NCBI GenBank assembly: GCA_964607285.1
Contig: CAZSJW010000003.1
Span: 6,094-70,093, forward strand
DNA: 64,000 bases
Direction: 5' to 3'
Origin: an uncultured Pseudomonadales bacterium
GTDB taxonomy: Bacteria; Patescibacteriota; Microgenomatia; UBA1400; PJMF01
Every line of letters begins with the position of its first letter. Positions within the stretch are counted from its first letter, which is position 1. The notes beneath the pieces are model-generated. The model saw nothing but the letters and a program-made list of their open reading frames with translations, did no database searches and had not been told where the DNA came from. Below, piece after piece: positions 26,718-42,338 of the stretch. A program made the position numbers and the translations under genes.

Positions 26718-26765
26718 CTACTACATAGTATAGTAGTTCGCCGTAATCCGCACAATTAAAAAAAA

Positions 26766-27434
26766 CTAGAGCTGTTTCTCATCCCGCAGCCAACGCACGC
26801 CCAGGTACACCAGAGGTGTCTCAAGTACTGACATACTACACTTCAGTAACCAATAGGGAATTATTAAACTCAATAAAAATATCCAGTTTGCCTCAAGAGA
26901 TTTATCAAATGAGTAGAACGCTAACGTGATGAATACAGTTGTATCTACGAACTGAGAAATAAAGTTTGAAACGTTGTTCCGCAACCACAATCGTTTTTTG
27001 CCCAACACCTCCCGTAGCTTTGCAAATATATACACATCAAGAAACTCCGCTAACGCAAAAGCTATCAAACTAGCGGCAGAGATCCGAGCTGACTGGTGAA
27101 AAATTGTATCGTACGCACTCTCAGTGGGCGCAAATCGAGCCGATGGAGGCAGTTGTGTGGCGAGCAAAGTGAACACAAGCAGTAGCGCTACCATGAATAA
27201 ACCAGAACGCACCACACTTCTTGCCCGCTCCTTACCATAAACCTCAATAATCACGTCATTGACCGTAAAAAGAATTGGTATCAAAAAAATTGAGACACTT
27301 GCATTCAGCTGATACCCAAAAATATTTGCTAACGGAAATGTCTTGCCACCCATCGTCTCTGCCACCACAATACAAAACGTATAGAGTGAAACCAAGAGGT
27401 CAAATTTCTTGATAGTCATCAGTGCTCGAATCAT
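26766..27434 (-). CDS. YhhQ/DUF165-family queuosine-precursor transporter-like membrane protein
   Basis: 6-TM protein with conserved FxxNDxI and NxxSxxVDTxxF-like motifs. Confidence 0.45.
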   Translation of the reverse strand: MIRALMTIKKFDLLVSLYTFCIVVAETMGGKTFPLANIFGYQLNASVSIFLIPILFTVNDVIIEVYGKERARSVVRSGLFMVALLLVFTLLATQLPPSARFAPTESAYDTIFHQSARISAASLIAFALAEFLDVYIFAKLREVLGKKRLWLRNNVSNFISQFVDTTVFITLAFYSFDKSLEANWIFLLSLIIPYWLLKCSMSVLETPLVYLGVRWLRDEKQL

Positions 27435-27458
27435 GGCGCGATTGTACCATCAACATTC

Positions 27459-28739
27459 TTATTTTCGCATCAGTACAATTCCAAAGGGAGTGTTTCTTCC
27501 TGGCCCAGCTACATATCTTCCTGCTGAATAGAGTGCTGTTGAACCACCACTATCTAAATTAATTCCATGCTGTAATCCTATTTTTTTGAGTACCCAAGCA
27601 ACCTCAGCGACAGTCGCACTACGCACGACACCAATGTAGACTGTACTCCCTTGTGCCCCAATGAAACTTCGAGACCCTCTACTTCCCTTTTTTGGATCTC
27701 CATCACCACCAAATCGAATATCACCATTTTGTAATAACAAGGGTTGAGCAGCGATGACAGCGTCTACACCAGTATCTCTCCCCCACTCTTGACTAGCACC
27801 TACAAAGCGTGCTGAGTTACCACTGAAAATCACTGCAGGAACTGCGCTATAAACGTTGTTAGCCGAGTTAAAGTATGTCTTCTGCTTATTCATGAGCAAG
27901 GTATCAAATGAGTTGGTTTTGCCCTCACAACTAGGATACTCTGCAGGACAAAAATAAGGACCATTTATACCTGCAAAACCGCCAGCTTTTGCAACAAAGT
28001 TTGCCAATGAATCAACTGGACAACCATTACCGCAATCACTATTACTAGCAGTTTCCACTACCACACGAGTACTGTTTAAGTCAGCAGCTATGATATCTAC
28101 TACAAAAGACCCAACATCAGTTTCTACCGTTTGCCTGCGATAGCCACTGTTTGGAGCAGCATTATTAACTGGTGCAGTCAAACCTGGATTTGAGCCCGCT
28201 GCGGTAAGCTCTGCCAGTCGGGTATCAACAGCTTTTTTTAGGTTTGAAGATGCTCCGATTGCCAGCTGGTACTCACGCTTAGAAAGTGCGGTTAAAATTG
28301 CGCTATAGCTGGACTCAAAAGTTTGCACTTTGCTGTCGTCTTCGGAAAGCTTTAAGAGTGCTTCATATACTATGACACTCTGTTTGTATGCATCTTCCAA
28401 ACTCTTTATTTCCGCTTGTAAATCTTCGTTGCGCTTAAACTGATCCTCAGCTCGCAACGCAGCGAGTTCACCACTTATTGAAGACAACTGGGTAGTTAAC
28501 TCTGCTCGTTCATTAGTAAATACCTGTTCTGTCTGCTGATGAGTAATAGCATACTTATCCCTCAATGCTCTATAGCCACTGTATGCTGCCACCCAATATG
28601 CAATCGCACCAATTAGTGTTGGCACAAGTATCCCCAATACAACTATAGAGAAGACAGTACGTAATTGGAGATACAGAGTTTGAATACTGCGCATGGTGCT
28701 ATACAAATCAGGCTCTGATACCACAGAGCCTGAATACAA
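27459..28739 (-). CDS. Membrane-anchored phosphodiester-glycosidase-family (DUF2233-like) protein
   Basis: N-terminal TM, coiled-coil, C-terminal INLDSGGSTAL motif characteristic of DUF2233. Confidence 0.45.
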   Translation of the reverse strand: MYSGSVVSEPDLYSTMRSIQTLYLQLRTVFSIVVLGILVPTLIGAIAYWVAAYSGYRALRDKYAITHQQTEQVFTNERAELTTQLSSISGELAALRAEDQFKRNEDLQAEIKSLEDAYKQSVIVYEALLKLSEDDSKVQTFESSYSAILTALSKREYQLAIGASSNLKKAVDTRLAELTAAGSNPGLTAPVNNAAPNSGYRRQTVETDVGSFVVDIIAADLNSTRVVVETASNSDCGNGCPVDSLANFVAKAGGFAGINGPYFCPAEYPSCEGKTNSFDTLLMNKQKTYFNSANNVYSAVPAVIFSGNSARFVGASQEWGRDTGVDAVIAAQPLLLQNGDIRFGGDGDPKKGSRGSRSFIGAQGSTVYIGVVRSATVAEVAWVLKKIGLQHGINLDSGGSTALYSAGRYVAGPGRNTPFGIVLMRK

Positions 28740-29151: not shown

Positions 29152-29616
29152 TTACCGAGTCACTGTGATGACTACACCCAATTCTGCATCAGGCGCACTG
29201 ACTGTGATACGGTTATCTGAAGCACTGCGAACTACTTCATATCCTGTGGCATATGTGCCAGAACATGTTGTAATTGGGGCTGTATTCAATGTAGGGTCAG
29301 TAGGCATAGCAGCCAAGTACTCTGTGACTAAGTCTGAACAGATGTTAGCACCAGTATCACTGATTTCCAAAGATGAGGTGGTAATACCACCAGGGAGTGC
29401 ACCTTTATTATCAGCTGCATACTGATGAATAGCATTCAAAATAGCATTAACATCACTACTACGAGCAGTGTTGTTTGCCTGTGAGAACTGCTTTGCGGGA
29501 TTAATGGCAATCAAAACAATAGCCAGCAAGACAGCTAAAATACCAATAACAACTAACAACTCAATCAAGGTAAAACCTTTCTTGAAGTGTAATGATTTGG
29601 GCAGGAGATATTGCAT
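29152..29616 (-). CDS. Type IV pilin (prepilin-type N-terminal cleavage/methylation domain), likely major pilin
   Basis: Class III signal KKGFTLIELLVVIGILAVLLAIVLIAI; about 150 aa; strong terminator downstream. Confidence 0.8.
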   Translation of the reverse strand: MQYLLPKSLHFKKGFTLIELLVVIGILAVLLAIVLIAINPAKQFSQANNTARSSDVNAILNAIHQYAADNKGALPGGITTSSLEISDTGANICSDLVTEYLAAMPTDPTLNTAPITTCSGTYATGYEVVRSASDNRITVSAPDAELGVVITVTR

Positions 29617-29684
29617 ATGGAGTCTCTGTTACCTTGTGTTAGATAATATACTCCTTTTACTATAGAACCCATTCGATTACTGTG

Positions 29685-30809
29685 TCAAGTGCTTGTAACA
29701 ATTCGGACAGATAGTACTCCATCTGTGCCGTTCAGTTCTTGAATAATTGGCTCTGTTGTTACTACAGTTTTTACTGCATCAATAACAATTGCTCGAATTT
29801 GTTCAGAAGTATTCTCTGCAAACAAGATACTCGCTCGACTCACTGTGCCGCCCGAATTGTTTCCAGTGGTGATCGTTTTAAATCCTACCGCTTCTAAAGC
29901 CGTACGAACTTGATCAGCTTGACCTGGAATACCTGAGCCATTCAATACTTGCACAGATGCGGCTGCCAATTCTGCAGGGGTGGGTTCAAGTGCTGATGCT
30001 GCTGCACTTGCTGTGGGTGTTGGCTCTAAAATAGGTAAAGGTACAGAAATCGGAGTTGGTGCTGGAACCACTGGCAGCGGATCAGCAGTGACTGACCATC
30101 GGTAAACAAGTAGCAACGCAATGAGCAAAACACCGAACACTATGCTTAAAATAATTAATTGTTTTTTGTCTTGTGGTAAACCTGATTGGATTTTTTGGTC
30201 TGATTTGATTTTCTTTTCTCTTTCTTCCTCAGAAACAAAACTCAGTAACTTTAATTGATCAAAGGTCTTACCTAACTTAGTTACAATCTCAGAAGGCTTG
30301 GCTTGCTTTAGTAACTCGGCATTGATTGCGAACTGAGGTAAAGCCAACGTGACCCTGTAGTGATGTGAGTCAAAAACTTGCACCAATGGTCTATACAAAT
30401 TTTTACTTATTGCAACTGCAGCAGCTCCTTGTTGGAGTTGAAACACTTTGCTCAGTTTATGCTCAAACGGAACCATTCCCAGAAATCCCAAAAGTTGTGG
30501 ATCTTCGTTGGTTGGTAGTTTCGGGAAATCTTGCCTAAAGTAGCACTCTTCAGAAAAAATAATATATGTGTTCGATTCTGCTATTTTCTCATCATTTCTC
30601 CAACCAATTAGTTGTGTTTCAATGAATCGAGTATCCGCAAACTCCATATCTTGCATGACACCTTCAGGGTAGTCTAGAACCAATGGTTCTGCAGCAATTG
30701 CAGAAAAAAGTGTCATCCGCTTCAGTTCGACAAACACAACTAATGGGACTGTTGTGCCACCATGCGCTAAGTTTGATAAAGTAAGTATCATTCGAACTGC
30801 TCCTGCCAA
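29685..30809 (-). CDS. Bitopic membrane protein with C-terminal LytR_C-like domain (pilus-locus associated)
   Basis: Cytoplasmic N-domain, single TM (LIILSIVFGVLLIALLLV), Pro-rich linker, C-terminal VQVLNGSGIPGQADQVRTALEAVGF (LytR_C-like). Confidence 0.4.
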   Translation of the reverse strand: MAGAVRMILTLSNLAHGGTTVPLVVFVELKRMTLFSAIAAEPLVLDYPEGVMQDMEFADTRFIETQLIGWRNDEKIAESNTYIIFSEECYFRQDFPKLPTNEDPQLLGFLGMVPFEHKLSKVFQLQQGAAAVAISKNLYRPLVQVFDSHHYRVTLALPQFAINAELLKQAKPSEIVTKLGKTFDQLKLLSFVSEEEREKKIKSDQKIQSGLPQDKKQLIILSIVFGVLLIALLLVYRWSVTADPLPVVPAPTPISVPLPILEPTPTASAAASALEPTPAELAAASVQVLNGSGIPGQADQVRTALEAVGFKTITTGNNSGGTVSRASILFAENTSEQIRAIVIDAVKTVVTTEPIIQELNGTDGVLSVRIVTST

Positions 30810-31189
30810 GATGTAACACTCAATACGTAATTAGTATACCCTGCTGTAACTACAATTGTCCTTTGAAAGCCCCCTACAACGCCGACTGAAGTAATTGTAA
30901 CAGGATCTACACCAGTAACAGTGATTGTGGCTGCTCCTCCGCCAACTGGCAAAGTTTCCCCTGTGTATCCAGGATCACGAAGAAAACGATACAAGGCATT
31001 TTCAATTCCACTCTCCGCGATATACAAAGCCTCATGACTGCGATCGAAACTACTAACCTGTTGAGTGCTTGTGATGGCAGCGGCAACAGTCGCTGTGAGC
31101 ACAACCATAGCAACAGCAGAAAAAATTAACAGCGCAGCGAGTGCTTGACCACTTTGCTGAGATCCTCGCTTTTTCACAGTTTTCAACAT
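30788..31189 (-). CDS. PilX-like/minor pilin-like protein
   Basis: N-terminal hydrophobic helix (GQALAALLIFSAVAMVVLTATVA) resembling PilX_N; within pilin operon. Confidence 0.4.
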   Translation of the reverse strand: MLKTVKKRGSQQSGQALAALLIFSAVAMVVLTATVAAAITSTQQVSSFDRSHEALYIAESGIENALYRFLRDPGYTGETLPVGGGAATITVTGVDPVTITSVGVVGGFQRTIVVTAGYTNYVLSVTSWQEQFE

Positions 31190-31689
31190 TAGCGAACTCC
31201 TATGGTAGTGGCAAATGATCTGTCCTCACTCCCTCTGGGTGGTTGTGCCCCAGCTGACGCTGTAAAACTGACTCGAAGTGAGTCGAAATCAGATCCATCA
31301 CTAACCCTCGTAAACTGCAAATCAGATATTGATAAATCTGCACGATGCATGCTCTGAGTACTCCCTCCAGCAGTAAGTTCAATGGCCGTTCCACTCAGTT
31401 GATAGATGAATGGTTGCCCATCGATCAGTAGGCTGAGCGTATCTCCGCTGGTTCCAGGAGTAGGAATAGTGATCAAATCAGCTCGGTAAACATCATACTC
31501 AATTCGTTGCAACAAATACTGCCCTTCTTGCGAAACGATTGAAACCGCCTGCCCTTCCATTTGTGTTTCTAAGCTAGTCAGAAACAATGTAGTTAAACCT
31601 GTCATAAAAACTGTCAACAAACCCATATACAACAACAGCTCGACTAAAGTAAATCCCAGCTGGTAAGTTTTAACAATTGTTTGTTTCAT
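31189..31689 (-). CDS. Prepilin-type pseudopilin/minor pilin
   Basis: N-terminal GFTLVELLLYMGLLTVF methylation motif. Confidence 0.7.
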   Translation of the reverse strand: MKQTIVKTYQLGFTLVELLLYMGLLTVFMTGLTTLFLTSLETQMEGQAVSIVSQEGQYLLQRIEYDVYRADLITIPTPGTSGDTLSLLIDGQPFIYQLSGTAIELTAGGSTQSMHRADLSISDLQFTRVSDGSDFDSLRVSFTASAGAQPPRGSEDRSFATTIGVR

Positions 31690-33632
31690 GGTGAATAATT
31701 AACGGTAACTGAGTATAGTTCAGGAGTTTGCAATGAATCCTCAGAAGAAAAATAAGCTCTATACCGAAAACATCGCCCTGGATTTTCATACCCCGAACCG
31801 TCATTGTTAAATGGAATTGGACCATCGCTTTCAAAAAAAGTACTTGCTGTTCCATCTGGGCCAACAAATGAAAAACTAGCACTTGTGCAACTTCCGCTGA
31901 CTGGGTCAGCAACTGCAACCTGGTATTGAACATCCGTTACGTCACCAGGCTCAATATGTTGAATAAAAAAACGATTAAAAGCAACAGAGTACCCAGGATC
32001 TATAGATGAGGATTCAAAAGTGCCAAACATTGCGTAAGAACCACCTCCTGGTCCGCCTTCAATTACTTTAAACTCTGCAGCAGTATCACCAGTCACAATA
32101 TATGAATATGCATCTCCGTCAGCTTCTTGCACAGCTGATACGCCGTAAATGCCAGTATTTACTTCAATTCCACCACAGCGAACAGGGTTAGACTCATTTG
32201 CTATGTTAACAACTTGATATTCCTCGCCATTTGTTCCAACTAATATCACTTTGTTTCCTGAAACAGCAGTAACACCAGTTGGATTCATTGATCCCGAATT
32301 ATACGAACCTAAAATCGGCAAACTACCTGATTTATTGGTTGTGTTAATAATAAAAAGTTCGGATAAAGAGTTTGACTGTGTTGTAGCTAAATATGCTCTT
32401 GTACCTGTATCATTGACGAACACTTCACGCCCATACTCGCCATTTACGTTCGCCGTTGCCACACTGTAAATATTGGTGCGATTACTAACATTTGCCACCC
32501 TGAGTTCAGCTGAACCCCAATCAACTGCCACGTATGCATAGTTGTTTACAACCTGTAATCTCCTGCCCGTTCCCCATAAAAACAGCGAGTCTAACATCGA
32601 TCTTGATCCAGTCTTGCTAGTTACGTCAAAGGTTACCAACCAAGCACCTGCAGTCATATATCCTGTATTACCCACAACATAAATTCCGTTTGCAGTCCCA
32701 TAAAACCAAGGAGCATCAAAGTATCCTACTTCCTGATTTGTGCTTAGATCTATAATCACAATGTTTTTTGTGCCATCATCGGTAGCTATATATGCATAGT
32801 TTGTGTCAATGAAAATATCATTGGTATCGTATCCAGTGATAGTAGAACTAACACTAACTGAAGGAGGATCAGCGTTAGTAACAGCAATTTCCGAAAAGAC
32901 ACCTGTGTTTGCAAAATCAGTCCCAGCAAACGCTTTGCCCTCAATTGCTCTAACTGCCCTTGCTGCAGCATTTTGAGGTAAGTCTAGTTGTGCCACAATA
33001 AACTCGTTTGGAACACACCAGTCACCATTTCCTGCACTAGCCAAAATAACTTCCCCTCCCGCTGTACTAGTGGAAACAGTATCTGTAAGTGTGCCAGCCT
33101 CAAACTCTGCTTGGCTACTTTGTGTAACTGTCACGTTATCGCCAAACCGAGACAAGTACATCTGATGGGTTACTATTTCAGATTTCGGAATTGACCACCC
33201 AACCTCAATCGTAATCAATTTGGTTGAAGGATCCAGTGAGCCACCACTACTAACAATTTGTTGTGTATCATCTCTATACACGTCACTAATTTGAATCTCT
33301 CTAGTCAAAGTACCAACTGTTTCTCCCCCAGCGACCAAACTCCAACTGCCTGATTGAACTACAGGATGGTAAGTACCATTTGCTGCCACTGCATCCCACG
33401 TTTCATCTCGTGCAGCTCGGACTGCTTCTGTTGCTTCACGCACTAGTTGTGCTGCTTCTAATCGCTGCTCCTGTTGTGCTTTTCCCTCTCGGGTAATAAT
33501 AAAACCTGAAAGTAGAGCTGGAATTATTAGCGCAGCTACTCCAATTGCCACAAGAAGTTCAATCAATAACTGGCCCGTCTGATAACGTATACACCGAGGG
33601 ACGCTAGTAGCTTTATTCAAATATTTACTCAT
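31686..33632 (-). CDS. Large prepilin-like protein with LVIVD-type beta-propeller repeats (candidate pilus tip adhesin)
   Basis: N-terminal TGQLLIELLVAIGVAALII pilin-like helix; C-terminal repeats NNYAYVAVDWGSAELRVANVSN, YAYIATDDGTKNIVIIDLSTNQEV, KVILVGTNGEEYQVVNIAN resembling LVIVD repeats. Confidence 0.55.
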   Translation of the reverse strand: MSKYLNKATSVPRCIRYQTGQLLIELLVAIGVAALIIPALLSGFIITREGKAQQEQRLEAAQLVREATEAVRAARDETWDAVAANGTYHPVVQSGSWSLVAGGETVGTLTREIQISDVYRDDTQQIVSSGGSLDPSTKLITIEVGWSIPKSEIVTHQMYLSRFGDNVTVTQSSQAEFEAGTLTDTVSTSTAGGEVILASAGNGDWCVPNEFIVAQLDLPQNAAARAVRAIEGKAFAGTDFANTGVFSEIAVTNADPPSVSVSSTITGYDTNDIFIDTNYAYIATDDGTKNIVIIDLSTNQEVGYFDAPWFYGTANGIYVVGNTGYMTAGAWLVTFDVTSKTGSRSMLDSLFLWGTGRRLQVVNNYAYVAVDWGSAELRVANVSNRTNIYSVATANVNGEYGREVFVNDTGTRAYLATTQSNSLSELFIINTTNKSGSLPILGSYNSGSMNPTGVTAVSGNKVILVGTNGEEYQVVNIANESNPVRCGGIEVNTGIYGVSAVQEADGDAYSYIVTGDTAAEFKVIEGGPGGGSYAMFGTFESSSIDPGYSVAFNRFFIQHIEPGDVTDVQYQVAVADPVSGSCTSASFSFVGPDGTASTFFESDGPIPFNNDGSGYENPGRCFRYRAYFSSEDSLQTPELYSVTVNYSP

Positions 33633-34137
33633 CGAGCAGTACCCCATATTGATTCACGGTAAACCCAGCACTCTCACCAGACTCTACGTTTGAAATAGTA
33701 ATTGTGTCTTGACCTGACATAAACCCAACAACTTCCCCACTGCCGTGCTGAAATACCAAGATATTGCTTGGAAGTTCAGTCGAGATACTCACCGCTTCTT
33801 CCATAATCGTTTCCACATTACCCTGAGCCCCTGGGACATACGAGGATCCCTCAAAAAAGGTATACCGATCTGCAGCAAAAAAAACCCCGAATGCAGAAGG
33901 TCCCGCAACTATACCTACATCCCCTTGCATAGCGCGTGCCTGCAGCAATCTCAGTTCTGAGCGAAGCGTCTCTGCTGTGCTTCGAACAGCTACCCGAGGA
34001 ATCAATCTAGACAAGCTGACAGAGCTAATCCCATACAACACAGCAACAATTCCCATCACTAGGATCAATTCAATTAACGTAAATCCAGATTGGACGACTC
34101 TCCTACTGTGAACAGGGATAAAAAAACTGGCGGGCAT
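33625..34137 (-). CDS. Prepilin-type pseudopilin/minor pilin
   Basis: SGFTLIELILVMGIVAVLYGI motif; start at MPASFF to avoid overlap with upstream histidine kinase gene. Confidence 0.7.
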   Translation of the reverse strand: MPASFFIPVHSRRVVQSGFTLIELILVMGIVAVLYGISSVSLSRLIPRVAVRSTAETLRSELRLLQARAMQGDVGIVAGPSAFGVFFAADRYTFFEGSSYVPGAQGNVETIMEEAVSISTELPSNILVFQHGSGEVVGFMSGQDTITISNVESGESAGFTVNQYGVLLDE

Positions 34138-34189
34138 GCCTCCAGTATATATGGTGTGTGTGCAGGTTGCAGCAGAGAATAGTATCAAT

Positions 34190-36487
34190 TTATACCCAAA
34201 AGCTAGATCGCGTCCTGATGATACCAACGTCCTCTCTTTTCTTGAACTCATCTTCTAACTTCTTAAAATCTTCTTGCGTATATTTTTTCAATGAAAAACA
34301 AAAGCTTGAACCCTTTCCTTCACCAGGAGATGTTGCCCATATTTCACCCTTATGCAACTCAACAACTGCCCGACTAATAAATAGTCCCAAACCTGTCCCC
34401 TGCGATGCATTCTGGTTTGTTTTGTAAGAACCCTTGATTAGGCCAAATTTTTGAAACAATTTACTGATAGTATCTGGAGTCATGCCAACACCTGTATCCG
34501 TAACACTAGTTATCAGCATGTCCTCTTCTTGTCTGAATGATATTGTTATCTTACCTTTTTTGGGCGTAAACTTTAAAGAATTTCCCAGTAAATTCATCAC
34601 CACTTCGCTCAATTTATCACTATCAGCGATGACTGGGGGCACTGCTCCCAATGACTTGCCTGTCCTGTCTGTACAGTGATCCGCTACCTCCACAGTAATA
34701 TCTAATTCATCTGTTCTAGACTTGACCTCTGCTACGATTTCAGTGACTAACGCTTGTAGATCTACTTTACCAACTGTCAAGGCAATGCGGTGTGACTCAA
34801 TTCGCGAAATATTGAGCATGTCATTCACTAATTTGATGAGACGATCCGTTGATAAATATGATCGTTCCAAATAGTATCGTTGCTTCTTAGAAAGCTGACC
34901 GCCCTTACCACTCAGTGCCATCCATATATAAGATTTTATGGCAGTCATTGGAGTTCTTAGCTCATGTGAAGCTATGGACACAAAATCATCTTTCAGTCTG
35001 TCAAGTTCCTTTAGACTCTTATTTGCCCGACGTAGTTTTGAGGTTGCCCGTAACACTTCATCCTCCAAAACAACGTTAAATTGTTTTATCTCTTCAAATG
35101 AGAGCGCATTGCGAAGCGCAATTGCAATTTGAGGTGCAATTAGTTGTAGTGTTTTGATGTCTTCAGAGGTATACACAGTACCAGTTTGCTTTTCTTGCAA
35201 GAGCATGCATCCCAAATAATCATTATTAACAATCAGGGGCAAGATCACAGCAATCTGTCTCTCTCTCATAATTGACTTGATTACGGACTCATCGATTTCA
35301 TCAAAGATGATGATTTGATCACGAGCTTTTCCCAAGGCATTCTTGACTGCTTCATATACTTGAAAATCATGTTTAAATTGCTGTAGTTGCGTATCAGATG
35401 TGGGTTGCAATGCCAAAGCATCTGAACCGTACAACCTAACTTTTTTATTATCGTTCCCAATCACAATTGCCATTGCAGAAATTTTCATCTCACCAGATAA
35501 TACTTTGATAAATCCATCTACTAACTTAGTGAGAGACAAAATCGATGTAGAAATTTTGCTCGTAAGTTTCAGCAAATCAGCTCGATCATAATCCCTGCGG
35601 TAAAAAATTGTTTCTGTTTTATGCTGTATCCAGCGTTTCAGTGGCTCAAAAGTCGAAACCACTCCAATTGTCACAGCTGCTGACGTCAAAATAAGGAGCA
35701 TTGATGGTTCTTGCCCTGAAAGCAAACTCTGTAAGTAGAAGACTGAAACGCTATAGACAGCAATAAAAATTCCCATTACTAAGATGTATCCTAATGACCT
35801 AACAATGACCAAGCTTAAATCCAAGAATCGGTGTTTTACGATTGCATAAGCAATCGTGCCTGCAAAAATAAGAGTAAAAATAGGGCCAAACATTACAAAG
35901 GAAGAAATCTGCAAAAGCGCAACAAACACAAAGTTGGTAACAGTCAACAAAGTGAATGAGGAAATGATTCCAGCAAGTAAATACTTGAGCTGAGTCTTCT
36001 CCAAACCGTGTGCCCTTCTAAACTTTTTGATCAAGATCCCAAATCCAGCAATCAGTGTTCCAAAAAACTGTATTGCAAAAACAGGCAATGCTGGTCCTGG
36101 CTGTGGCGTAATGACCCCAGCGACTACTGAAACAGAAGTGAACATAAATGGTGACATTGCCAATACAGAGGTAATGAATCCCATATACAGTATTAAGTTT
36201 TCCCACTTGCCTGAGATTGTAGAGTGGGTTCGAGGAAATGATGCCACCAATAAAAGAATTGCTGGACCTAAAAATGAAGTTACTACCATTACAACTCTAA
36301 TCCAAAATAAAGTTGTTGCCTCATCAGGAGCGTGCAAAGAAAAGTAATTAGTAAGTGTCCATAGACCAATCACTACAGTGAGAAACAAAAAATGCCGATG
36401 TGTATCTCCTTTTGTGTTTTTTAGATACACAAAAAAACCTAACAAAAAGTTAAGAACAGTAACTACAATTGCGACAAGAAGTTCCAC
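34190..36487 (-). CDS. Sensor histidine kinase (multi-TM N-terminal sensor, GAF-like, HisKA, HATPase_c)
   Basis: H-box SHELRTPMTAIKSY, G-box GTGLGLFISRAVVELHKGEIWA; roughly 7 TM helices in N-terminal 300 aa. Confidence 0.8.
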   Translation of the reverse strand: MELLVAIVVTVLNFLLGFFVYLKNTKGDTHRHFLFLTVVIGLWTLTNYFSLHAPDEATTLFWIRVVMVVTSFLGPAILLLVASFPRTHSTISGKWENLILYMGFITSVLAMSPFMFTSVSVVAGVITPQPGPALPVFAIQFFGTLIAGFGILIKKFRRAHGLEKTQLKYLLAGIISSFTLLTVTNFVFVALLQISSFVMFGPIFTLIFAGTIAYAIVKHRFLDLSLVIVRSLGYILVMGIFIAVYSVSVFYLQSLLSGQEPSMLLILTSAAVTIGVVSTFEPLKRWIQHKTETIFYRRDYDRADLLKLTSKISTSILSLTKLVDGFIKVLSGEMKISAMAIVIGNDNKKVRLYGSDALALQPTSDTQLQQFKHDFQVYEAVKNALGKARDQIIIFDEIDESVIKSIMRERQIAVILPLIVNNDYLGCMLLQEKQTGTVYTSEDIKTLQLIAPQIAIALRNALSFEEIKQFNVVLEDEVLRATSKLRRANKSLKELDRLKDDFVSIASHELRTPMTAIKSYIWMALSGKGGQLSKKQRYYLERSYLSTDRLIKLVNDMLNISRIESHRIALTVGKVDLQALVTEIVAEVKSRTDELDITVEVADHCTDRTGKSLGAVPPVIADSDKLSEVVMNLLGNSLKFTPKKGKITISFRQEEDMLITSVTDTGVGMTPDTISKLFQKFGLIKGSYKTNQNASQGTGLGLFISRAVVELHKGEIWATSPGEGKGSSFCFSLKKYTQEDFKKLEDEFKKREDVGIIRTRSSFWV

Positions 36488-36530: not shown

Positions 36531-37997
36531 TTACTCTGTTCGGTACTGATACTCATACTTCAGTCCAAAGACATCCTTAACCGCTTCTCGAAGTACAGCC
36601 AAGAGACTAGTTTTTCCATCAGCATACTGCTGCCAAAAAATTGGATAGTTTTCTACAATTTCAGGCAAGTAAGCGTTATCTTCTGCTTCAGCTGTTGCTC
36701 CTATCATTGCATCTAAGTCCACAACAACTCTGTCTCTCACTGATTGACCATTCAATATCTTACTCACAACTCTGCTTTGAACAGCACCACTAGCTGCAGC
36801 ATTAATTCCACTTTGTGATAGGTAGTTTTGCAAACCTTGTGACCCTAACAACAAATTCACCATCTGTCTTGGCGGAAAATATTTCGTGCCAACAATTTCA
36901 ACTACCAGTTTTGTAAATGCCATTGCAGCATCCAGTCCCTGCTTAGTTTTTAACTCCGCCAGTTTTTGAATCAGTACTGACTTGGTTAGATGTTTATGCC
37001 CAAAAAAGCCTAATTTGGCAATTGTTCCGTTCCCCTGCATCCAGTCCTGAAAATCCTCAAAACTTGCTGTTTGAGGATTTGGCAGTAAGCTGGTTGGATA
37101 TTGATCAGTTACGATAGTTGCCTCGTGCGCCACGTTATTATTCATACAAATTGGCACACCCAAAGCATACCCAATACAACGCAACACTACTTTTGTGTGC
37201 AAATCATCTATGGCATCAACTACAACTACTCGTTCCTTTTGGATAGAGAGTTTCTGAATGAGTTCAAACAGCTCTTTGTGGGGCAAAATTCTAGGGTACA
37301 GGTACACACCCGCCATAGGGTTAGACTCAACAATATCTCTACCTGTCTGCAGTACTTTAGACTTTCCCACATCCACAGTGCCAGAAGTTTGAAGGCGCAA
37401 CACATTGGATTGATCTACTACGTCTGGGTCAGTAAGGTGTACTTCCACACCCAGCTTGCCTAACAACTTAGCTGAGACTTCACCCGAACTTGCTCCCAAA
37501 ACTATCACTGCTGCACTTTCCAGCTGAGCGATTTCCTGTGCTGAAACTACAGGGTTGAGTCTAGAAAAGTACAATGCTTTAAAATAAGGTGCCCTGGGTA
37601 GTAATAAGAAACTACCCGTAATTTGATTTTGGTATACCAAAATATTTTCAGGGTCTGAAATGAATGTAGCAATGAACTCATCTTCAGTTTTCATTCCCAT
37701 TTGCTGAACACTTAAAATGTTATTTTTCCACAGTTCATGTAGTTCATTCCAAAACATTTGAAGGTAAGGCAACATTTCTTTAGCTACTTCTTGACTAAAA
37801 AGTAGTGCATAAAATTGTTGGAACTCACTACTTGTGTTAGGAAACTGAGTTAGAATGTCTGTTTCGCGCACCACAGACTTTGCACAATTCTCCTGTAGCC
37901 AAAGCTGTTCTCGAGCTGCTTGAGAAGTGTGCCACACAAGTTGTGGTTCAATACTTGGAGCAATGTTTGCTTGTTCAAGAAACGCAGTGTGCGTCAT
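36531..37997 (-). CDS. ThiF/MoeB (E1-like) adenylyltransferase-superfamily protein with N- and C-terminal extensions
   Basis: Central region VIVLGASSGEVSAKLLGKLGVEVHLTDPDVVDQSNVLRLQ...VVVVDAIDDLHTKVVLR parallels MoeB/ThiF (Rossmann loop, D.D.V..SNL.RQ, DxxDN..R); about 165-aa N- and 150-aa C-terminal regions of unknown function. Confidence 0.55.
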   Translation of the reverse strand: MTHTAFLEQANIAPSIEPQLVWHTSQAAREQLWLQENCAKSVVRETDILTQFPNTSSEFQQFYALLFSQEVAKEMLPYLQMFWNELHELWKNNILSVQQMGMKTEDEFIATFISDPENILVYQNQITGSFLLLPRAPYFKALYFSRLNPVVSAQEIAQLESAAVIVLGASSGEVSAKLLGKLGVEVHLTDPDVVDQSNVLRLQTSGTVDVGKSKVLQTGRDIVESNPMAGVYLYPRILPHKELFELIQKLSIQKERVVVVDAIDDLHTKVVLRCIGYALGVPICMNNNVAHEATIVTDQYPTSLLPNPQTASFEDFQDWMQGNGTIAKLGFFGHKHLTKSVLIQKLAELKTKQGLDAAMAFTKLVVEIVGTKYFPPRQMVNLLLGSQGLQNYLSQSGINAAASGAVQSRVVSKILNGQSVRDRVVVDLDAMIGATAEAEDNAYLPEIVENYPIFWQQYADGKTSLLAVLREAVKDVFGLKYEYQYRTE

Positions 37998-38001
37998 TTC
38001 C

Positions 38002-39114
38002 TCACCAATCTATTGGCAAATTGTGTATATCAGCTAAGAGCTGTTCCCTATTATACATCGAAGAGTATGGTTGTGGCTCAGCATGATCAAATAAATAGGT
38101 AAAGAGTTTCTCGTCTTCTTCAAATACTTTTGTCCATGCTTTTCTCCGTTTTGGCACAGCCAAATATTCTAAGTGCTCTTCAACAGAAGAAAACTCTTTG
38201 CCATTCAATTGTGCCAATGAATGTATGGTTTGCAGATGAGACTTTGTGAGGATATTCTCACGATATGCTTGTAACGCAACTTCTAAAAAGTTTTCCCCCC
38301 ACCAGTACCCTGGCCAATATTTAAACAGTTCAGCTATTTGCGACCGCAGTAGCGGTTCATGTAAAGCCATTTGTACCTGATAGCTAGGTGGTAACGCTAA
38401 ACTAGTTTTAGTTTCTGGAAATGAAAATGTATGAGCAACACCTGCTTTGTCCGTAAAAACAAACGATTGATCACGTAGTCTTCTAGCAAGCTGTAACAAA
38501 AATACCGAATCCTTCTGATCAGTCTGCAGTAAAACCGAAAAGGTAGCAGCAAGTGCTACGGCCCTGCTGTTACGAAGTTTTGCCTCATAGATCTCTTCTG
38601 GAACATCTACGCACTCTGATATCGTAGAAGCCCTACTTAGCACAGATACTTGTGATAATGGTATTCTTGCGTCAACGACATGCGCCAGAGGTATTGTGCC
38701 TTCAGGTGTTACAACTACCCAATGCAGTAAATCAATCGGAAGATTGTTGTACCCTAGCTGCAAAGCTGGTCGAGCAGTCATATGAAAATATGTAGTTATT
38801 GTAGGCGTTTTAACTGTAGTCAAAAAAAGTATTGTGTCAGATAACTTGTCTTCTGGGGTTTCCAGCAATACTCTGTTCTTATCTTCACGATCTCCCCAGA
38901 TAGCATACGCTGCTCTGATTTTCTGAATTTTCTGCCACATTTCTGCAGATACTTGTGATGCAGAAACAGCTCCAGCATCTACCGAGAACTGTTGTCCATC
39001 GTACTCGAACTCAGTTCTCCTACTCACTAGACCCTTTGTTTCAACTGAAACTGGATGCAAAAAATCATTGATTGGTTCAACAGAATGTCTGATTGTCTCT
39101 GCTTGGGTCAACAT
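38002..39114 (-). CDS. Hypothetical protein (370 aa), co-transcribed partner of E1-like gene
   Basis: 4-nt gap to downstream E1-like gene; no recognisable motifs. Confidence 0.4.
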   Translation of the reverse strand: MLTQAETIRHSVEPINDFLHPVSVETKGLVSRRTEFEYDGQQFSVDAGAVSASQVSAEMWQKIQKIRAAYAIWGDREDKNRVLLETPEDKLSDTILFLTTVKTPTITTYFHMTARPALQLGYNNLPIDLLHWVVVTPEGTIPLAHVVDARIPLSQVSVLSRASTISECVDVPEEIYEAKLRNSRAVALAATFSVLLQTDQKDSVFLLQLARRLRDQSFVFTDKAGVAHTFSFPETKTSLALPPSYQVQMALHEPLLRSQIAELFKYWPGYWWGENFLEVALQAYRENILTKSHLQTIHSLAQLNGKEFSSVEEHLEYLAVPKRRKAWTKVFEEDEKLFTYLFDHAEPQPYSSMYNREQLLADIHNLPIDW

Positions 39115-39210
39115 TGTAGAATATATATGGGGTACTGGTTAGGTATCTTTTGTTGCGTTTAGCCTCACTTTACTATACAGTAAACGCATGTTACAACCAA
39201 TGAGTATACA

Positions 39211-39582
39211 ATGAAAAAGAAGATATTGCTGATCGATGATGATCTTTTTATTCGTGACCTATATCATGAGGTACTCGAACAAGCAGGTTTTGAAGTTGAG
39301 ACTGCTGCAGACGGCAAAGCTGGTCTAGAAAAAATCCTTTTAGGTGGATTTGATCTAATTTTACTAGATGTGATGATGCCACAACTCGATGGGATAGGAA
39401 TTCTCTCGGAACTTGCAGTGCAGAAACCAAAACAAAACAATGGACCAATTGTGTTGCTCACTAATCTGGCTCATGACCCAATCATCAAAGAGGCGCTGCA
39501 ACACGGTGCCAAAGAGTGTTTTATAAAGGCTGACCTTAATCCAGATGAATTTTTGACTAAAGTTAAAGGCTTACTACGGTAG
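39211..39582 (+). CDS. Single-domain response regulator (CheY-like receiver)
   Basis: KKILLIDDD...; phospho-acceptor Asp in LILLDVMMP context; conserved T and K positions; no output domain. Confidence 0.75.
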   Translation: MKKKILLIDDDLFIRDLYHEVLEQAGFEVETAADGKAGLEKILLGGFDLILLDVMMPQLDGIGILSELAVQKPKQNNGPIVLLTNLAHDPIIKEALQHGAKECFIKADLNPDEFLTKVKGLLR

Positions 39583-39584
39583 TC

Positions 39585-40637
39585 TTACCTTGCCCCCACG
39601 TTTCCAATCAACCCATAAATAGGTGCAATGATCGACATCATCATAGCACCCACCCCAACCCCTACACCAACCAACATAATAGGTTCTAACATCGCGGTTG
39701 CCGTCTTTAGGTCTTTAGTCACGTGATAATCTAAAAATTCTGATATCTCTAGCATTGACTTGTCCAAAGTTCCGCTTTTTTCACCAACTTCTATCAATTT
39801 AATCATCATTCCTGGAATGCCATTCTTCCTTGAACGCAGACCTTCTGCAAACGACTGACCCGCCAGTACAGTGTCTCGTGCATGAATAATTAGTTGACGC
39901 ACTTCACGTTTAGAGACCACATCTGCTGCTAACTCAAGAGCGGTAGCTATTGGCAAGCCCGAGCTAAGCAACAAATACATGCTGCGCGAAAAGCGCGTCA
40001 GATCTATTTGCTCAACAAGCTTGGAGATTACGGGTAATGCAAATAAAAACCGATACAAGATCTCTCGCTGACTTCTGAACATGTAAACAATAAAGGCTGT
40101 AAAAAGTCCCAACCCAATACTTAGCTCAAGAGTGTTGTTTACAATCATATCGGAAACAGCAATCATCAGACGTGTAGGCAGTGGTAGCTCAACCCGCAAC
40201 CTGGAAAAAACAGTTGAAATTTTAGGAATAACAAATACTAAGATACCCAAAAATACTGCTGCAAAAACCACCATTACAAAAACTGGATACATTAGTGACG
40301 ATTTTACCTTGTCTGAGAACTCCATTTCATCTTGGATATTTTTTTTGATGTCTTTGAGAGTGGTTTCTAAATTTCCCGCTTCTTCAGATGCCTTGATCAA
40401 ATTAACGGTGACTTTATTAAATACTTTGGGAAACTTTGCGAAGCTTGCATGCACATGATTGCCCGCTGCTAAATCACTGGCTAATGTTTCCAACACTTTT
40501 TTTTGATTACCCTTCGACTCTGACATGATTGAACGCACGGATTCCATAATTGGAATACCAGCGGCCAACATAGTGGAAAGATTGCTAATCAGAGTGATTT
40601 TGTCACTCCCCGAGAGTCTCAATGATGATAACCGCAT
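39585..40637 (-). CDS. pilC: Type IV pilus assembly platform protein PilC (GspF family)
   Basis: Two GspF-like repeats with 3 TM segments; adjacent to pilB. Confidence 0.7.
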   Translation of the reverse strand: MRLSSLRLSGSDKITLISNLSTMLAAGIPIMESVRSIMSESKGNQKKVLETLASDLAAGNHVHASFAKFPKVFNKVTVNLIKASEEAGNLETTLKDIKKNIQDEMEFSDKVKSSLMYPVFVMVVFAAVFLGILVFVIPKISTVFSRLRVELPLPTRLMIAVSDMIVNNTLELSIGLGLFTAFIVYMFRSQREILYRFLFALPVISKLVEQIDLTRFSRSMYLLLSSGLPIATALELAADVVSKREVRQLIIHARDTVLAGQSFAEGLRSRKNGIPGMMIKLIEVGEKSGTLDKSMLEISEFLDYHVTKDLKTATAMLEPIMLVGVGVGVGAMMMSIIAPIYGLIGNVGAR

Positions 40638-40646
40638 ACGTACTTC

Positions 40647-42338
40647 CTACTCTGCTTCTGTACTAGTTACACGCAATACTTCTTCGATTGTAGTTGCGCC
40701 TTTAGCCACTTTATCAAGACCATCATCAAGCATAACGGTCATCCCATCTGCAATAGCTTGTTTTTCAATCAAATCTGAATCTTTTTTTGCGGTAATCAGC
40801 TCTCGAATTGCCTTGGTAACTTCCAACACCTCATAAATACCAATCCGACCCTGATAGCCCGTAAAGTGACACCGTTTACATCCTTCACCTTTATACAATC
40901 TCATTTCCTTATTTTTACCCACAGGCACATAATGCTTTGTGATTGACTCCTCATTAAAATGCTTTTTAAGCTCCTCTAGTGTCATCACATACGATACCCG
41001 ACACTCAGGGCAAATTTTTCGTACCAACCGTTGCCCAACGACTACATTAACAGTAGATGCCACCAGAAAAGGCTCAACACCCATGTCAATTAATCTAGGG
41101 AACGTGGCAGCTGCGCTGTTAGTATGGAGTGTAGATAACACAAGATGCCCCGTCATAGCAGCATTGACAGCAATAGTTGCAGTCTCACTATCACGGATTT
41201 CACCCACGAACACATAATCTGGATCTTGCCGCAAAATGGAACGCAGTCCCTGAGCAAAGGTTAAGTTGGTTTTTGGGTTGACCTGTACTTGATTTGCTCC
41301 AGCAACTTTGTATTCCGCGGGATCCTCAATTGAGGTGATGTTTTTCTCTCGAGTATTGAGTACTTTAAGTATGGAGTAAATGCTGGTTGTTTTTCCAGAA
41401 CCAGTCGGTCCTGTAGATAAAATCATGCCATGTGCTCGTGAATATCCCTTTATAACCTTGGTGTTATCCGCTTCATTCATACCCAAATCAGGCAAAGAAA
41501 ATGACTTAGATTTAGACGATAGCAACCGCATAACTACTTTTTCACCATCTACGATCGGAAGAATGGAAATACGAAGATCAAGCCGTTCTTCCTTCATATC
41601 TAGCCGAATCTTGCCGTCTTGTGCAGCGTGATGTTCATCAGTGCGCAAACTTGAAAGCACTTTTAATCTCGTCACAACTCGATCATGGATTGCTTTTGGT
41701 ACCACCAATACGTCATGCAAAATGCCGTCTATGCGAAATCTCACCAGAGATTTCTTCTCTCCAGGTTCAATGTGAATATCTGAGGCACTCTCTTTGTATG
41801 CCGTGGTCAACAAAAGATCCACCATCTTTTCTACAGGTAAATCCTCATTTAGGTCTCCCGAAGCCGTAATTCCCTCATCTAAAAATTGCTCAAAACTTTT
41901 TTGTAAGTCCTTCTTGTATAAGGCAAGTGTATTATCGATATCTAAATCGGTTGCATAGTGCGGTAGAATTGGTTGGCCTGTCTTCTTGGCAAGCATTTTT
42001 AGTGGTAGTTCTTGGCCAGAATTTGCCATCCCAACACTAATACCCTTGTCATCTCGATCAAATGCGATCATTCGATACTGACGAGCCATGTCCTCAGGAA
42101 TAACTTGCAATATATCATCTGGTATAGCAGTTTTAGTCAGTACAACAAATGGTAACTGCAACTCTTTAGCCACAGCCGCACCAATTTTGTCATCTGCTAC
42201 TAAATCATGTTCTACAACATACTGCCATAACCCTTGCTTTGCACCAACAGCTTGCTTTTGTGATTCAGCTAAGGCTTTATCATCAAGAAATTTGTTAGTT
42301 TTAATGACACCTGCCACCTGTTGATCACTCAATTGCAT
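40647..42338 (-). CDS. pilB: Type IV pilus assembly ATPase PilB (GspE family)
   Basis: Walker A GPTGSGKTT, GspE signature motifs, tetracysteine C..C...C..C motif near C-terminus. Confidence 0.85.
   Translation of the reverse strand: MQLSDQQVAGVIKTNKFLDDKALAESQKQAVGAKQGLWQYVVEHDLVADDKIGAAVAKELQLPFVVLTKTAIPDDILQVIPEDMARQYRMIAFDRDDKGISVGMANSGQELPLKMLAKKTGQPILPHYATDLDIDNTLALYKKDLQKSFEQFLDEGITASGDLNEDLPVEKMVDLLLTTAYKESASDIHIEPGEKKSLVRFRIDGILHDVLVVPKAIHDRVVTRLKVLSSLRTDEHHAAQDGKIRLDMKEERLDLRISILPIVDGEKVVMRLLSSKSKSFSLPDLGMNEADNTKVIKGYSRAHGMILSTGPTGSGKTTSIYSILKVLNTREKNITSIEDPAEYKVAGANQVQVNPKTNLTFAQGLRSILRQDPDYVFVGEIRDSETATIAVNAAMTGHLVLSTLHTNSAAATFPRLIDMGVEPFLVASTVNVVVGQRLVRKICPECRVSYVMTLEELKKHFNEESITKHYVPVGKNKEMRLYKGEGCKRCHFTGYQGRIGIYEVLEVTKAIRELITAKKDSDLIEKQAIADGMTVMLDDGLDKVAKGATTIEEVLRVTSTEAE

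Follow-up and report, generated by a model that had tools for sequence, protein, structure and literature searches.

The window, which is the whole stretch of 64,000 nucleotides analysed here, carries two adjacent genes on the minus strand, both with an ATG start, that encode a 488-aa E1-like protein (36531-37997) and a 370-aa partner (38002-39114). Both ORFs of the original prediction exist at these coordinates, with the 4-nt spacer it described, and a Shine-Dalgarno-like sequence (GAGGAA) runs across the upstream stop codon. The neighbours are likewise those first described: pilB and pilC upstream, a divergently transcribed receiver-only response regulator, and a 7TM-GAF histidine kinase downstream, followed by a run of prepilin-type genes (208, 653, 166, 133, 374 and 154 aa, the second with an LVIVD repeat). 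The features of the locus are as follows.

29152..34251, minus strand: prepilin-type genes downstream of the kinase (Pfam matches to N_methyl and LVIVD)
34190..36487, minus strand: 765-aa sensor histidine kinase (Pfam HisKA_7TM, GAF, HisKA and HATPase_c), conserved neighbour and candidate receptor
35816..36469, minus strand: seven-transmembrane sensor region of the kinase, residues 7-224 (PF16927, 4.2e-14)
36531..37997, minus strand: 488-aa E1/ThiF-fold enzyme of the TrzS/OxzB-type cyclase clade, a predicted ATP-dependent carboxylate adenylase/cyclase
37128..37550, minus strand: ThiF adenylation core, residues 150-290 (Pfam; residue-by-residue alignment to Uba4 and TsaN)
37479..37496, minus strand: variant nucleotide-binding loop GASSGE, residues 168-173 (family consensus G-A-S-T-G)
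38002..39114, minus strand: 370-aa partner, a predicted N-acyl amino acid synthase-like acyltransferase with a GNAT core of the LuxI/FeeM type and a helical C-terminal region
38302..38313, minus strand: PGYW motif, residues 268-271, where the partner's helical C-terminal region begins (invariant in 6/6 aligned family members)
38365..39027, minus strand: GNAT-like core of the partner, approximately residues 30-250 (predicted fold)
39115..39210, no strand: divergent intergenic region of 96 nt between the partner and regulator genes, presumed to hold both promoters
39211..39582, plus strand (divergent): 123-aa receiver-only response regulator (PF00072, 1.1e-22)
39585..42338, minus strand: pilC (T2SSF, 39585-40637) and pilB (T2SSE, 40647-42338) (Pfam)

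Promoter and terminator scans, including consensus promoters in the 96-nt region, performed no better than chance. No small ThiS/MoaD-like ORF was found in the intergenic gaps, as anticipated, and no precursor-peptide ORF was found in the 43-nt and 96-nt gaps.

The 488-aa protein matches the ThiF domain (PF00899, E = 3e-11, residues 150-290). Within this core D190, D192, S197, N198, R201, K214 and D264 are invariant in a 10-sequence family alignment, and the residues for ATP binding and adenylation (S145, R146, D190, N198, R201, K214 and D264) are canonical and invariant across the family. Judging from its sequence, the protein is a true E1/ThiF-fold enzyme with its adenylation residues intact. 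The original prediction had recognised these residues but misread the exact wording of two motifs, which are DPDVVDQSNVLRLQ and DAIDDLHTK, with DD and K instead of DN and R. It had also called the glycine-rich loop degenerate; the loop does read GASSGE, but it is kept as G-x-S-T/S-G throughout the family, and TrzS-type relatives show GLSVGS. Comparison of these motifs argues that the loop is derived from that of the TrzS-type cyclases and is not a decayed one.

The top NCBIfam match for this protein, and for seven of the eight relatives scanned, is NF005901 (Rv1355c, that is TrzS), with alignments spanning model positions ~30-366 in several relatives. The window protein scores 48 bits against a curated cut-off of 476 that was set for a two-domain protein, and its relatives score 52-104 bits. 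For the window protein hhalign gives 99.7% to the cyclase of a distant variant (locus L028), which itself reaches 312 bits on NF005901, and 99.2% to a Rhodococcus protein of the Rv1355c family. The core and the C-terminal extension are covered in the two alignments, and the one to L028 additionally takes in much of the N-terminal extension. The two extensions, first described as lacking any recognisable family, both align with TrzS-type ThiF cyclases and can be read as traits of TrzS/OxzB-type enzymes. The alignments indicate that the 488-aa protein is homologous to TrzS-type cyclases but forms a deep, divergent branch. TrzS, TyzB and OxzB have been shown by experiment to use ATP to cyclise N-acyl amino acids, giving oxazolones (PMC12856293, PMC10404671, 10.1101/2020.06.11.147165), and the ThiF clade to which the protein belongs uses N-acyl amino acids, small molecules and not proteins, as substrate (PMC12596934).

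These results bear on the more familiar roles of E1-like proteins. It is highly improbable that the enzyme is a housekeeping sulfur-carrier adenylyltransferase of the MoeB/ThiF type with its carrier encoded elsewhere, and the original prediction was right to set it apart from these: the ThiF, MoeB and MoeZ models reach 24-36 bits on it, far below their cut-offs of 159-647, its three cysteines (38, 274 and 284) form no CxxC zinc motifs, and there is no MoaD/ThiS gene nearby. In relatives it shares one chain with a GNAT-like protein, and its conserved neighbour is a kinase.

The proposal that a pilus or signalling protein is modified post-translationally fared less well. In its general form, the enzyme would adenylate a protein or ribosomal peptide (a pilin, the kinase, the regulator or an unrecognised RiPP precursor) at its C-terminus and the partner would be a transferase acting on that end, as in MccB or PaaA chemistry. 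We consider this unlikely. There is no small ORF in the gaps; Ubl, E2, JAB and recognisable peptide-binding domains are all absent; the nearest sequence relatives are small-molecule cyclases; most family loci have no pilus genes; and the suggested search for a conserved cysteine in the E1-like protein turned up no invariant cysteine in the family alignment. RiPP modification of the MccB, PaaA or GrcB kind was rejected because no precursor ORF lies in the gaps and the N-terminal extension aligns with TrzS-type cyclases instead of a clamp or RRE. A role in anti-phage defence or conjugation along the lines of CBASS Cap2, Bil or 6A-MBL is disfavoured and has very little probability: neither protein has a PADLOC match, no CD-NTase, E2, JAB or Ubl gene is present, and Cap2-related scores fall far under those of the TrzS model. 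When a defence or signalling module was first suggested for this locus, the signalling direction was the right one.

As first noted, the 370-aa partner has no motifs, and it has no match in Pfam, NCBIfam, PADLOC or PDB sequences. Among six members of the partner family there was no match to PF00765 (Autoind_synth) or any other Pfam family even at E = 5, and no sequence-level tie to any acyltransferase family was found. Its AF2 model (pLDDT 82) retrieves a generic GNAT fold from the PDB with Foldseek (NatD, probability 0.90), a result that does not point to LuxI or FeeM in particular. The second-best structural match is AclA (PDB 9egb), for which no literature was found. Based on the model, the partner is predicted to have a LuxI/FeeM-type GNAT acyltransferase fold and to be N-acyl amino acid synthase-like. 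The PGYW motif recurs in a 513-aa protein at locus L093 and in a 136-aa remnant at locus L091. Three candidate TrzA/TyzA-like proteins encoded beside plasmid-borne Rv1355c-family genes are unlike the partner profile, a comparison that is uninformative either way. Improbable in our view is that the partner is instead a true synthase of the acyl-homoserine-lactone type, working from SAM plus an acyl donor, with a separate or later step on its product left to the E1-like enzyme.

The family is rare. A full HMMER scan, for which the partner was joined with both extensions of the E1-like protein into a chimeric query, recovered 13 matches in 1.84 billion representatives, two of them the window proteins themselves; word-indexed homolog searches returned essentially the query proteins alone. 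Scans of genome and metagenome loci with a three-sequence alignment returned almost entirely generic MoeB/ThiF proteins, with L001 and L028 as useful exceptions. In three lineages (P0005, P0006 and P0007) the partner and the E1-like protein form one chain. Because of these fusions, the 370-aa gene can be taken from sequence comparison as a true functional partner of the E1-like gene. In the close relative L085 the upstream gene encodes an unrelated 313-aa protein, and the distant variants L001 and L028 carry a PaaK-like ligase in place of the GNAT partner. At L028 the cyclase gene is, in addition, followed directly by one for a nitroreductase. A phmmer search with this nitroreductase as query gave no match in the window, and the gene tables of the family loci contain no PF00881 flavin oxidase, whose sole occurrence is at L028, the distant variant.

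The conservation of the neighbourhood was compared across 12 other loci, 10 of the family and two distant relatives (L001 and L028). An ortholog of the HisKA_7TM kinase adjoins the E1-like gene in all 12. Full-length orthologs are found in L085-L091 and L001 (436-773 bits) and partial or cut matches in L028, L092 and L093 (189-211 bits); the 7TM part alone matches the kinases of the other loci at 65-318 bits. The receiver-only regulator is present at nine of the 12, with homologs beside the module in L001 and L085-L091 (49-154 bits) and at the P0011 locus. Just 3-4 of the 12 have pilus genes beside the module; the pilC/pilB arrangement of the window is repeated in L086 and L087, which also have prepilin-type gene sets syntenic with those of the window. 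The conserved neighbour of the gene pair is the histidine kinase together with the regulator, not the pilus genes. Of the two pairings raised in the original prediction, the one with the 370-aa gene holds, as the fusions attest, and the one with the pilus locus does not extend beyond those few loci. The kinase stays adjacent through changes of the upstream enzyme (GNAT partner, PaaK-like ligase or 313-aa protein) and where pilus genes are absent. Adjacency by itself is no proof that the kinase senses the product. Two papers on the pili and genetics of Saccharibacteria and Patescibacteria make no mention of a module of this kind.

Taking the predicted fold together with the cyclase homology, the product of the gene pair is most likely a small fatty-acyl amino-acid compound. 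In the pathway that we infer, including its substrates and ring closure, the LuxI/FeeM-type GNAT acyltransferase would form an N-acyl amino acid. The ThiF-fold enzyme would then use ATP to adenylate the carboxylate of this N-acyl amino acid, and attack of the amide oxygen on the adenylate could close a 5(4H)-oxazolone (azlactone) ring; alternatively, the adenylate might be handed to another nucleophile. No flavin oxidase is encoded, and one would therefore expect a saturated and more labile product or something derived from it; saturated oxazolones are hydrolysed in acid (PMC12856293). The lipid-like product could serve as a self-made signal, read by the 7TM-GAF histidine kinase via its membrane domain or its GAF domain, with the CheY-like receiver-only regulator as a further element of the circuit. 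We likewise infer the output: in the window genome and those nearest to it, the circuit would control the type IV pilus machinery encoded next to it.

We give about even weight to the reading that the two genes constitute a small-molecule pathway of a divergent, oxidase-less oxazolone type that is tied to a dedicated sensor kinase, as a candidate autoinducer circuit. Rather doubtful, but to be weighed against it, is that an N-acyl amino acid or oxazolone-type lipid is made and is not the ligand of the kinase. Such a lipid would act as an effector or an antimicrobial or be part of the envelope, and the two-component system would either govern its synthesis or be co-regulated with the lipid and the pili. 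The enzyme-level evidence is identical for the two readings, adjacency alone cannot separate a receptor from a regulator, and known N-acyl tyrosine derivatives have antimicrobial activity (PMC12856293). On the other hand, a kinase that is kept through swaps of the upstream enzyme and in the absence of pilus genes is more typical of a synthase-receptor pair, and direct transcriptional control of the enzyme genes by the regulator is unlikely because the regulator has no DNA-binding output domain. The pair and the kinase may thus be an undescribed self-made signal and its receptor. More tentatively, and with a probability that we place well short of even, the locus could represent a cell-cell or contact signalling system not recognised before, in which an azlactone autoinducer derived from an N-acyl amino acid, made by a fused or coupled acyltransferase-ThiF synthase, acts through the dedicated 7TM-GAF kinase and the CheY-like regulator on the type IV pilus. 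The hosts look like pilus-dependent bacteria with reduced genomes and may be Patescibacteria.

Acyl-oxazolones were discovered as recently as 2020-21. Their physiological role was called "a major unresolved question" by the authors of the Mycobacterium tuberculosis study, who noted a likeness to acyl-homoserine lactones but had no receptor (PMC12856293). A divergent branch of the oxazolone enzyme logic, bound by gene order to one orthologous kinase and to a receiver-only regulator, offers a concrete candidate for a signal and its receptor; if true, the azlactone-autoinducer reading would give the first receptor, and hence a physiological role, for oxazolone-type lipids. According to a 2025 review, ThiF-like small-molecule chemistry outside RiPP pathways comprises one validated example (PMC12596934). 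This chemistry would be extended here, with the oxidase-less form and the acyltransferase-ThiF fusion as new features. Speculatively, the circuit could have a bearing on the regulation of attachment, should the hosts prove to be pilus-dependent episymbionts.

Compared with MoeB/ThiF, MccB, PaaA and TcdA, the enzyme is without a protein, peptide or tRNA partner gene, zinc-binding CxxC pairs or a catalytic cysteine, and its extensions appear to belong to a small-molecule cyclase clade. Bacterial E1-E2-Ubl, CBASS Cap2 and Bil systems differ from this locus in their E2, JAB, Ubl or CD-NTase neighbours, none of which occur here, where the E1-like protein has no invariant cysteine. The partner shares a predicted LuxI-type GNAT fold with LuxI-family AHL synthases and FeeM-type N-acyl amino acid synthases; unlike these, it lies outside PF00765 by sequence, is ~170 residues longer and is paired or fused with a ThiF-like enzyme.

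The closest resemblance is to the known acyl-oxazolone pathways, OxzA/OxzB of Pseudoalteromonas rubra, TyzA/TyzB/TyzC, and TrzA/TrzS of M. tuberculosis. In all of them, and by prediction here, a gene for a FeeM/LuxI-fold N-acyltransferase lies directly upstream of that for a ThiF-like ATP-dependent enzyme, and the ThiF core and C-terminal extension, and via L028 much of the N-terminal extension, are homologous. As is reported for TyzA (P95232), the partner is "hypothetical" by sequence, and its fold alone gives the acyltransferase away. In contrast to these pathways, no flavin-dependent oxidase of the nitroreductase superfamily is fused or adjacent, so that one of the three known components is missing; the glycine loop is one residue shorter (GASTG vs GLSVGS); by sequence the acyltransferase forms a family of its own, with the PGYW motif and a helical tail; and where fusions occur the order is acyltransferase-ThiF, whereas there it is ThiF-oxidase. 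The always adjacent 7TM histidine kinase and the receiver-only regulator have not been reported for Oxz, Tyz or Trz.

In LuxM/LuxN, CqsA/CqsS and LqsA/LqsS, the synthase gene for a lipophilic signal lies beside that for the polytopic membrane histidine kinase which detects the signal. The module described here resembles them in that a putative synthase gene adjoins a polytopic sensor kinase, an adjacency conserved in 12/12 loci, and differs in the chemistry and families of the synthase, in the HisKA_7TM plus GAF sensor and in the receiver-only regulator.

The pair under study comprises two genes:
36531-37997, reverse strand: E1-like gene, 488 aa, ATG start
38002-39114, reverse strand: partner gene, 370 aa, ATG start

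Both reading frames and their strand were confirmed, as were the neighbours named in the original prediction: pilB (T2SSE) and pilC (T2SSF) upstream of the pair, a receiver-only regulator transcribed divergently, and, immediately after the E1-like gene on its downstream side, a HisKA_7TM-GAF-HisKA-HATPase kinase, then a run of prepilin-type genes. The motifs quoted there were slightly inexact; the actual sequence reads DPDVVDQSNVLRLQ and DAIDDLHTK. The two genes are separated by 4 nt and a GAGGAA ribosome-binding sequence overlaps the upstream stop codon, which suggests coupled translation. Residues 150-290 of the E1-like protein match the ThiF family (PF00899, E = 3e-11), and searches of Pfam, NCBIfam, PADLOC and PDB sequences gave no match for the partner.

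Taken as its longest ORF, the first pilin gene (33625-34251, reverse strand) shares 62 nt with the 3' end of the gene for the kinase (34190-36487, reverse strand). Because its N-methylation motif begins only at residue 54, an internal Met is probably the true start and the overlap an artefact of choosing the longest ORF. One gene in the pilin run (29685-30809) has a product of 374 aa that bears a LytR_C domain. Downstream of the run lie genes for a phosphodiester glycosidase (NAGPA), a Vut_1 vitamin/queuosine-precursor transporter and an alpha/beta hydrolase (S9/S33; 25653-28739, reverse strand), and a single ORF of 2058 aa occupies 19406-25582 (reverse strand). In gene content and pilus locus the window recalls Patescibacteria, to which its source may belong.

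Searching 5.8 billion proteins by word index brought up the query proteins alone. HMMER was then run in full against 1.84 billion representatives with a chimera of the partner and the two E1 extensions as query; the ThiF core was omitted because generic ThiF proteins would swamp the results. This gave 13 matches, the two window proteins included. Their alignments show that the family is real, though small and rare. Its other members are:
Partner (N-terminal) and E1-like protein (C-terminal) in a single chain: P0005 (801 aa), P0006 (873 aa), P0007 (746 aa)
Partner alone: P0008, P0013
E1-like protein alone: P0004, P0009, P0010, P0011, P0012, P0014

The fusions are direct evidence that the window partner and E1-like protein act together.

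In the family alignment all canonical adenylation residues of the E1-like protein are invariant (S145, R146, G168, D190, D192, S197, N198, R201, K214 and D264), and HMMER alignments place them in agreement with Uba4 and with TsaN's TcdA domain. Comparison figures were 18.4 for MoeB, ~17 for UBA5 and Uba4, 15.5 for MccB and PaaA, and 14.3 for TcdA. The glycine loop, initially described as degenerate, is kept across the family as G-A/C-S-T-G and is therefore a lineage trait rather than decay; the window GASSGE is a form, one residue shorter, of the GLSVGS loop of TrzS-type proteins. The best NCBIfam model for the window protein is NF005901 ("Rv1355c family protein"; 48 bits), which is also best for 7 of the 8 relatives scanned (52-104 bits, often over model positions ~30-366) and scores 312 and 190 bits with the more distant relatives L028 (metagenome) and L001 (MAG). 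By hhalign, the family profile aligns with the L028 E1-like protein at 99.7% (window residues 50-445) and with a Rhodococcus "Rv1355c family protein" at 99.2% (window residues 118-431 onto its residues 60-333). Given these matches and the related loop, the extensions that had been called atypical appear, like the loop, to be hallmarks of the known TrzS-type ThiF clade.

Like TyzA, the partner is "hypothetical" by sequence and recognisable by fold. Its comparison figures were 12.7 for LasI, 11.6 for TofI, 11.1 for MesI, 10.9 for RpaI and 9.6 for EsaI (all AHL synthases), 11.8 for the N-acyl amino acid synthase FeeM, and ~8-10 for generic GNATs. A true AHL synthase is disfavoured, because PF00765 is absent from the partner and an AHL has no carboxylate on which the fused ThiF enzyme could act. 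Members of the partner family have no Pfam match even at E = 5, and share R67, Y70, W73, G74, D89, W132, R161 and a PGYW motif (268-271).

Gene contexts around the E1-like genes of family members and two distant relatives (L001, L028): upstream gene; kinase; regulator; pilus genes
Window: partner family; adjacent; yes, divergent; pilB, pilC, pilins
L085: unrelated 313-aa protein; adjacent; yes; none
L086: partner (fused); adjacent; yes, divergent; pilC, pilins
L087: partner (fused); adjacent; yes, divergent; pilB, pilC, pilins
L088/L089: partner (fused); adjacent; yes; none
L090: partner family; adjacent; yes; PilM-like gene ~4 kb off
L091: 136-aa remnant with PGYW; adjacent; yes; none
L092: partner fragment (contig cut); adjacent, convergent; contig too short for regulator or pilus genes
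L093: partner family (513 aa); adjacent (cut by contig end); contig too short for regulator; none
P0011 locus: 344-aa protein without Pfam match; adjacent; yes; none
L001:6473-12999 (distant): PaaK-like ligase in place of the GNAT partner, then TrzS-type ThiF cyclase; 7TM kinase adjacent; yes; none
L028:8163-13530 (distant): PaaK-like ligase in place of the GNAT partner, then TrzS-type ThiF cyclase; 7TM kinase after nitroreductase gene; none identified; none

At every locus examined the kinase accompanies the E1-like gene, so the constant core consists of the ThiF-type cyclase, the 7TM kinase and, at most loci, the regulator, with a variable acyl-forming enzyme. In this neighbourhood comparison, which the original prediction had called for, the kinase stays and pilus genes are absent from most loci. 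L086 and L087 share synteny with the window, the 640-aa LVIVD pilin-like gene included. The kinases are orthologs of the window kinase (full length, 436-773 bits at L085-L091 and L001; 189 bits at L028; cut kinases, 200 bits at L092 and 211 bits at L093), and the 7TM part alone gives 65-318 bits against the kinases of other loci.

The closest relative of the window E1-like protein, P0004 (~34% identity), is encoded at L085, where the gene for the 313-aa protein (L085:5482-6423) precedes it with a 4-nt overlap. This protein has no Pfam match, does not resemble the partner profile (hhalign probability 0.5%), and may be a third kind of acyl-forming enzyme. The 136-aa ORF at L091:9589-9999, with the partner's PGYW and an ELGR-like stretch, has the look of a partner that was truncated or frameshifted; TraC/TraG-like genes for conjugation lie on its contig too, as does a Peptidase_S74 gene. 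In L001 and L028 the PaaK-like adenylate-forming ligase carries an SSGSTGEPT motif and has no Pfam match. An aromatic amino acid lyase gene lies upstream in L001, and in L028 the nitroreductase gene directly follows the cyclase gene. These variant clusters suggest aryl-acyl rather than fatty-acyl products. No family locus contains a nitroreductase-type oxidase.

TrzS converts N-acyl-tryptophan to a tryptazolone, with ATP-dependent cyclisation first giving a saturated oxazolone intermediate (PMC12856293). TyzB (Rv2338c) and the OxzB ThiF domain carry out the same reaction on N-acyl-tyrosine (PMC10404671; 10.1101/2020.06.11.147165). According to a 2025 review, oxazolone formation by OxzB is the sole validated case of a ThiF-like enzyme outside RiPP pathways, and OxzB the sole known ThiF-like enzyme with a small-molecule substrate (PMC12596934). 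On a Kitasatospora plasmid (NZ_CP108248.1; L095:3224-6108), the C-terminal half of a 616-aa "ThiF family adenylyltransferase" is a TrzS-like cyclase and the N-terminal ~260 aa are unrecognised; next comes a gene for a ketoacyl-ACP synthase III, and a LuxR-type regulator is encoded nearby. The protein may be a further fused variant of this chemistry.

By fold and analogy, the partner would N-acylate an amino acid. Homology and the conserved catalytic residues suggest that the ThiF-type enzyme then adenylates the free carboxylate and the amide oxygen closes a 5(4H)-oxazolone ring. Because the oxidase is absent, the ring would remain in its saturated, labile form, or another nucleophile would take up the activated acyl group. 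From the conserved neighbourhood, the kinase would read the product via its 7TM or GAF part and phosphorylate the CheY-like regulator, which has no DNA-binding domain and thus probably acts on a protein target; the adjacent pilus machinery would be the obvious candidate in this genome. The main rival explanation is that the lipid made by the pair does not serve the kinase as its ligand. A signalling role for an oxazolone-type product fits published remarks that oxazolones are labile in water, a trait common among signaling molecules (10.1101/2020.06.11.147165), that they resemble AHLs, and that trzAS adjoins cyclic-di-GMP genes (PMC12856293). A GGDEF-domain gene ~1 kb upstream of a TrzS-like Rv1355c-family gene on a Rhodococcus qingshengii plasmid (L094:1825-6073) is reminiscent of M. 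tuberculosis, where cyclic-di-GMP genes flank trzAS. No paper in the literature searched mentions oxazolones and histidine kinases together.

Protein or peptide C-terminal modification and defence systems, the leading ideas of the original prediction, find no support: each of them, and likewise a housekeeping MoeB/ThiF role, lacks here the features that define it. The looser idea in that prediction, a signalling module, is supported. We do not file the pair with the Oxz, Tyz or Trz systems, because the oxidase that marks those pathways was looked for and is missing here. It represents a divergent, oxidase-free form, with predicted chemistry, of the oxazolone-type pathway that combines an N-acyltransferase with a ThiF cyclase. 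What it adds to the known systems is a link to a sensor kinase, and this link is strongly conserved.
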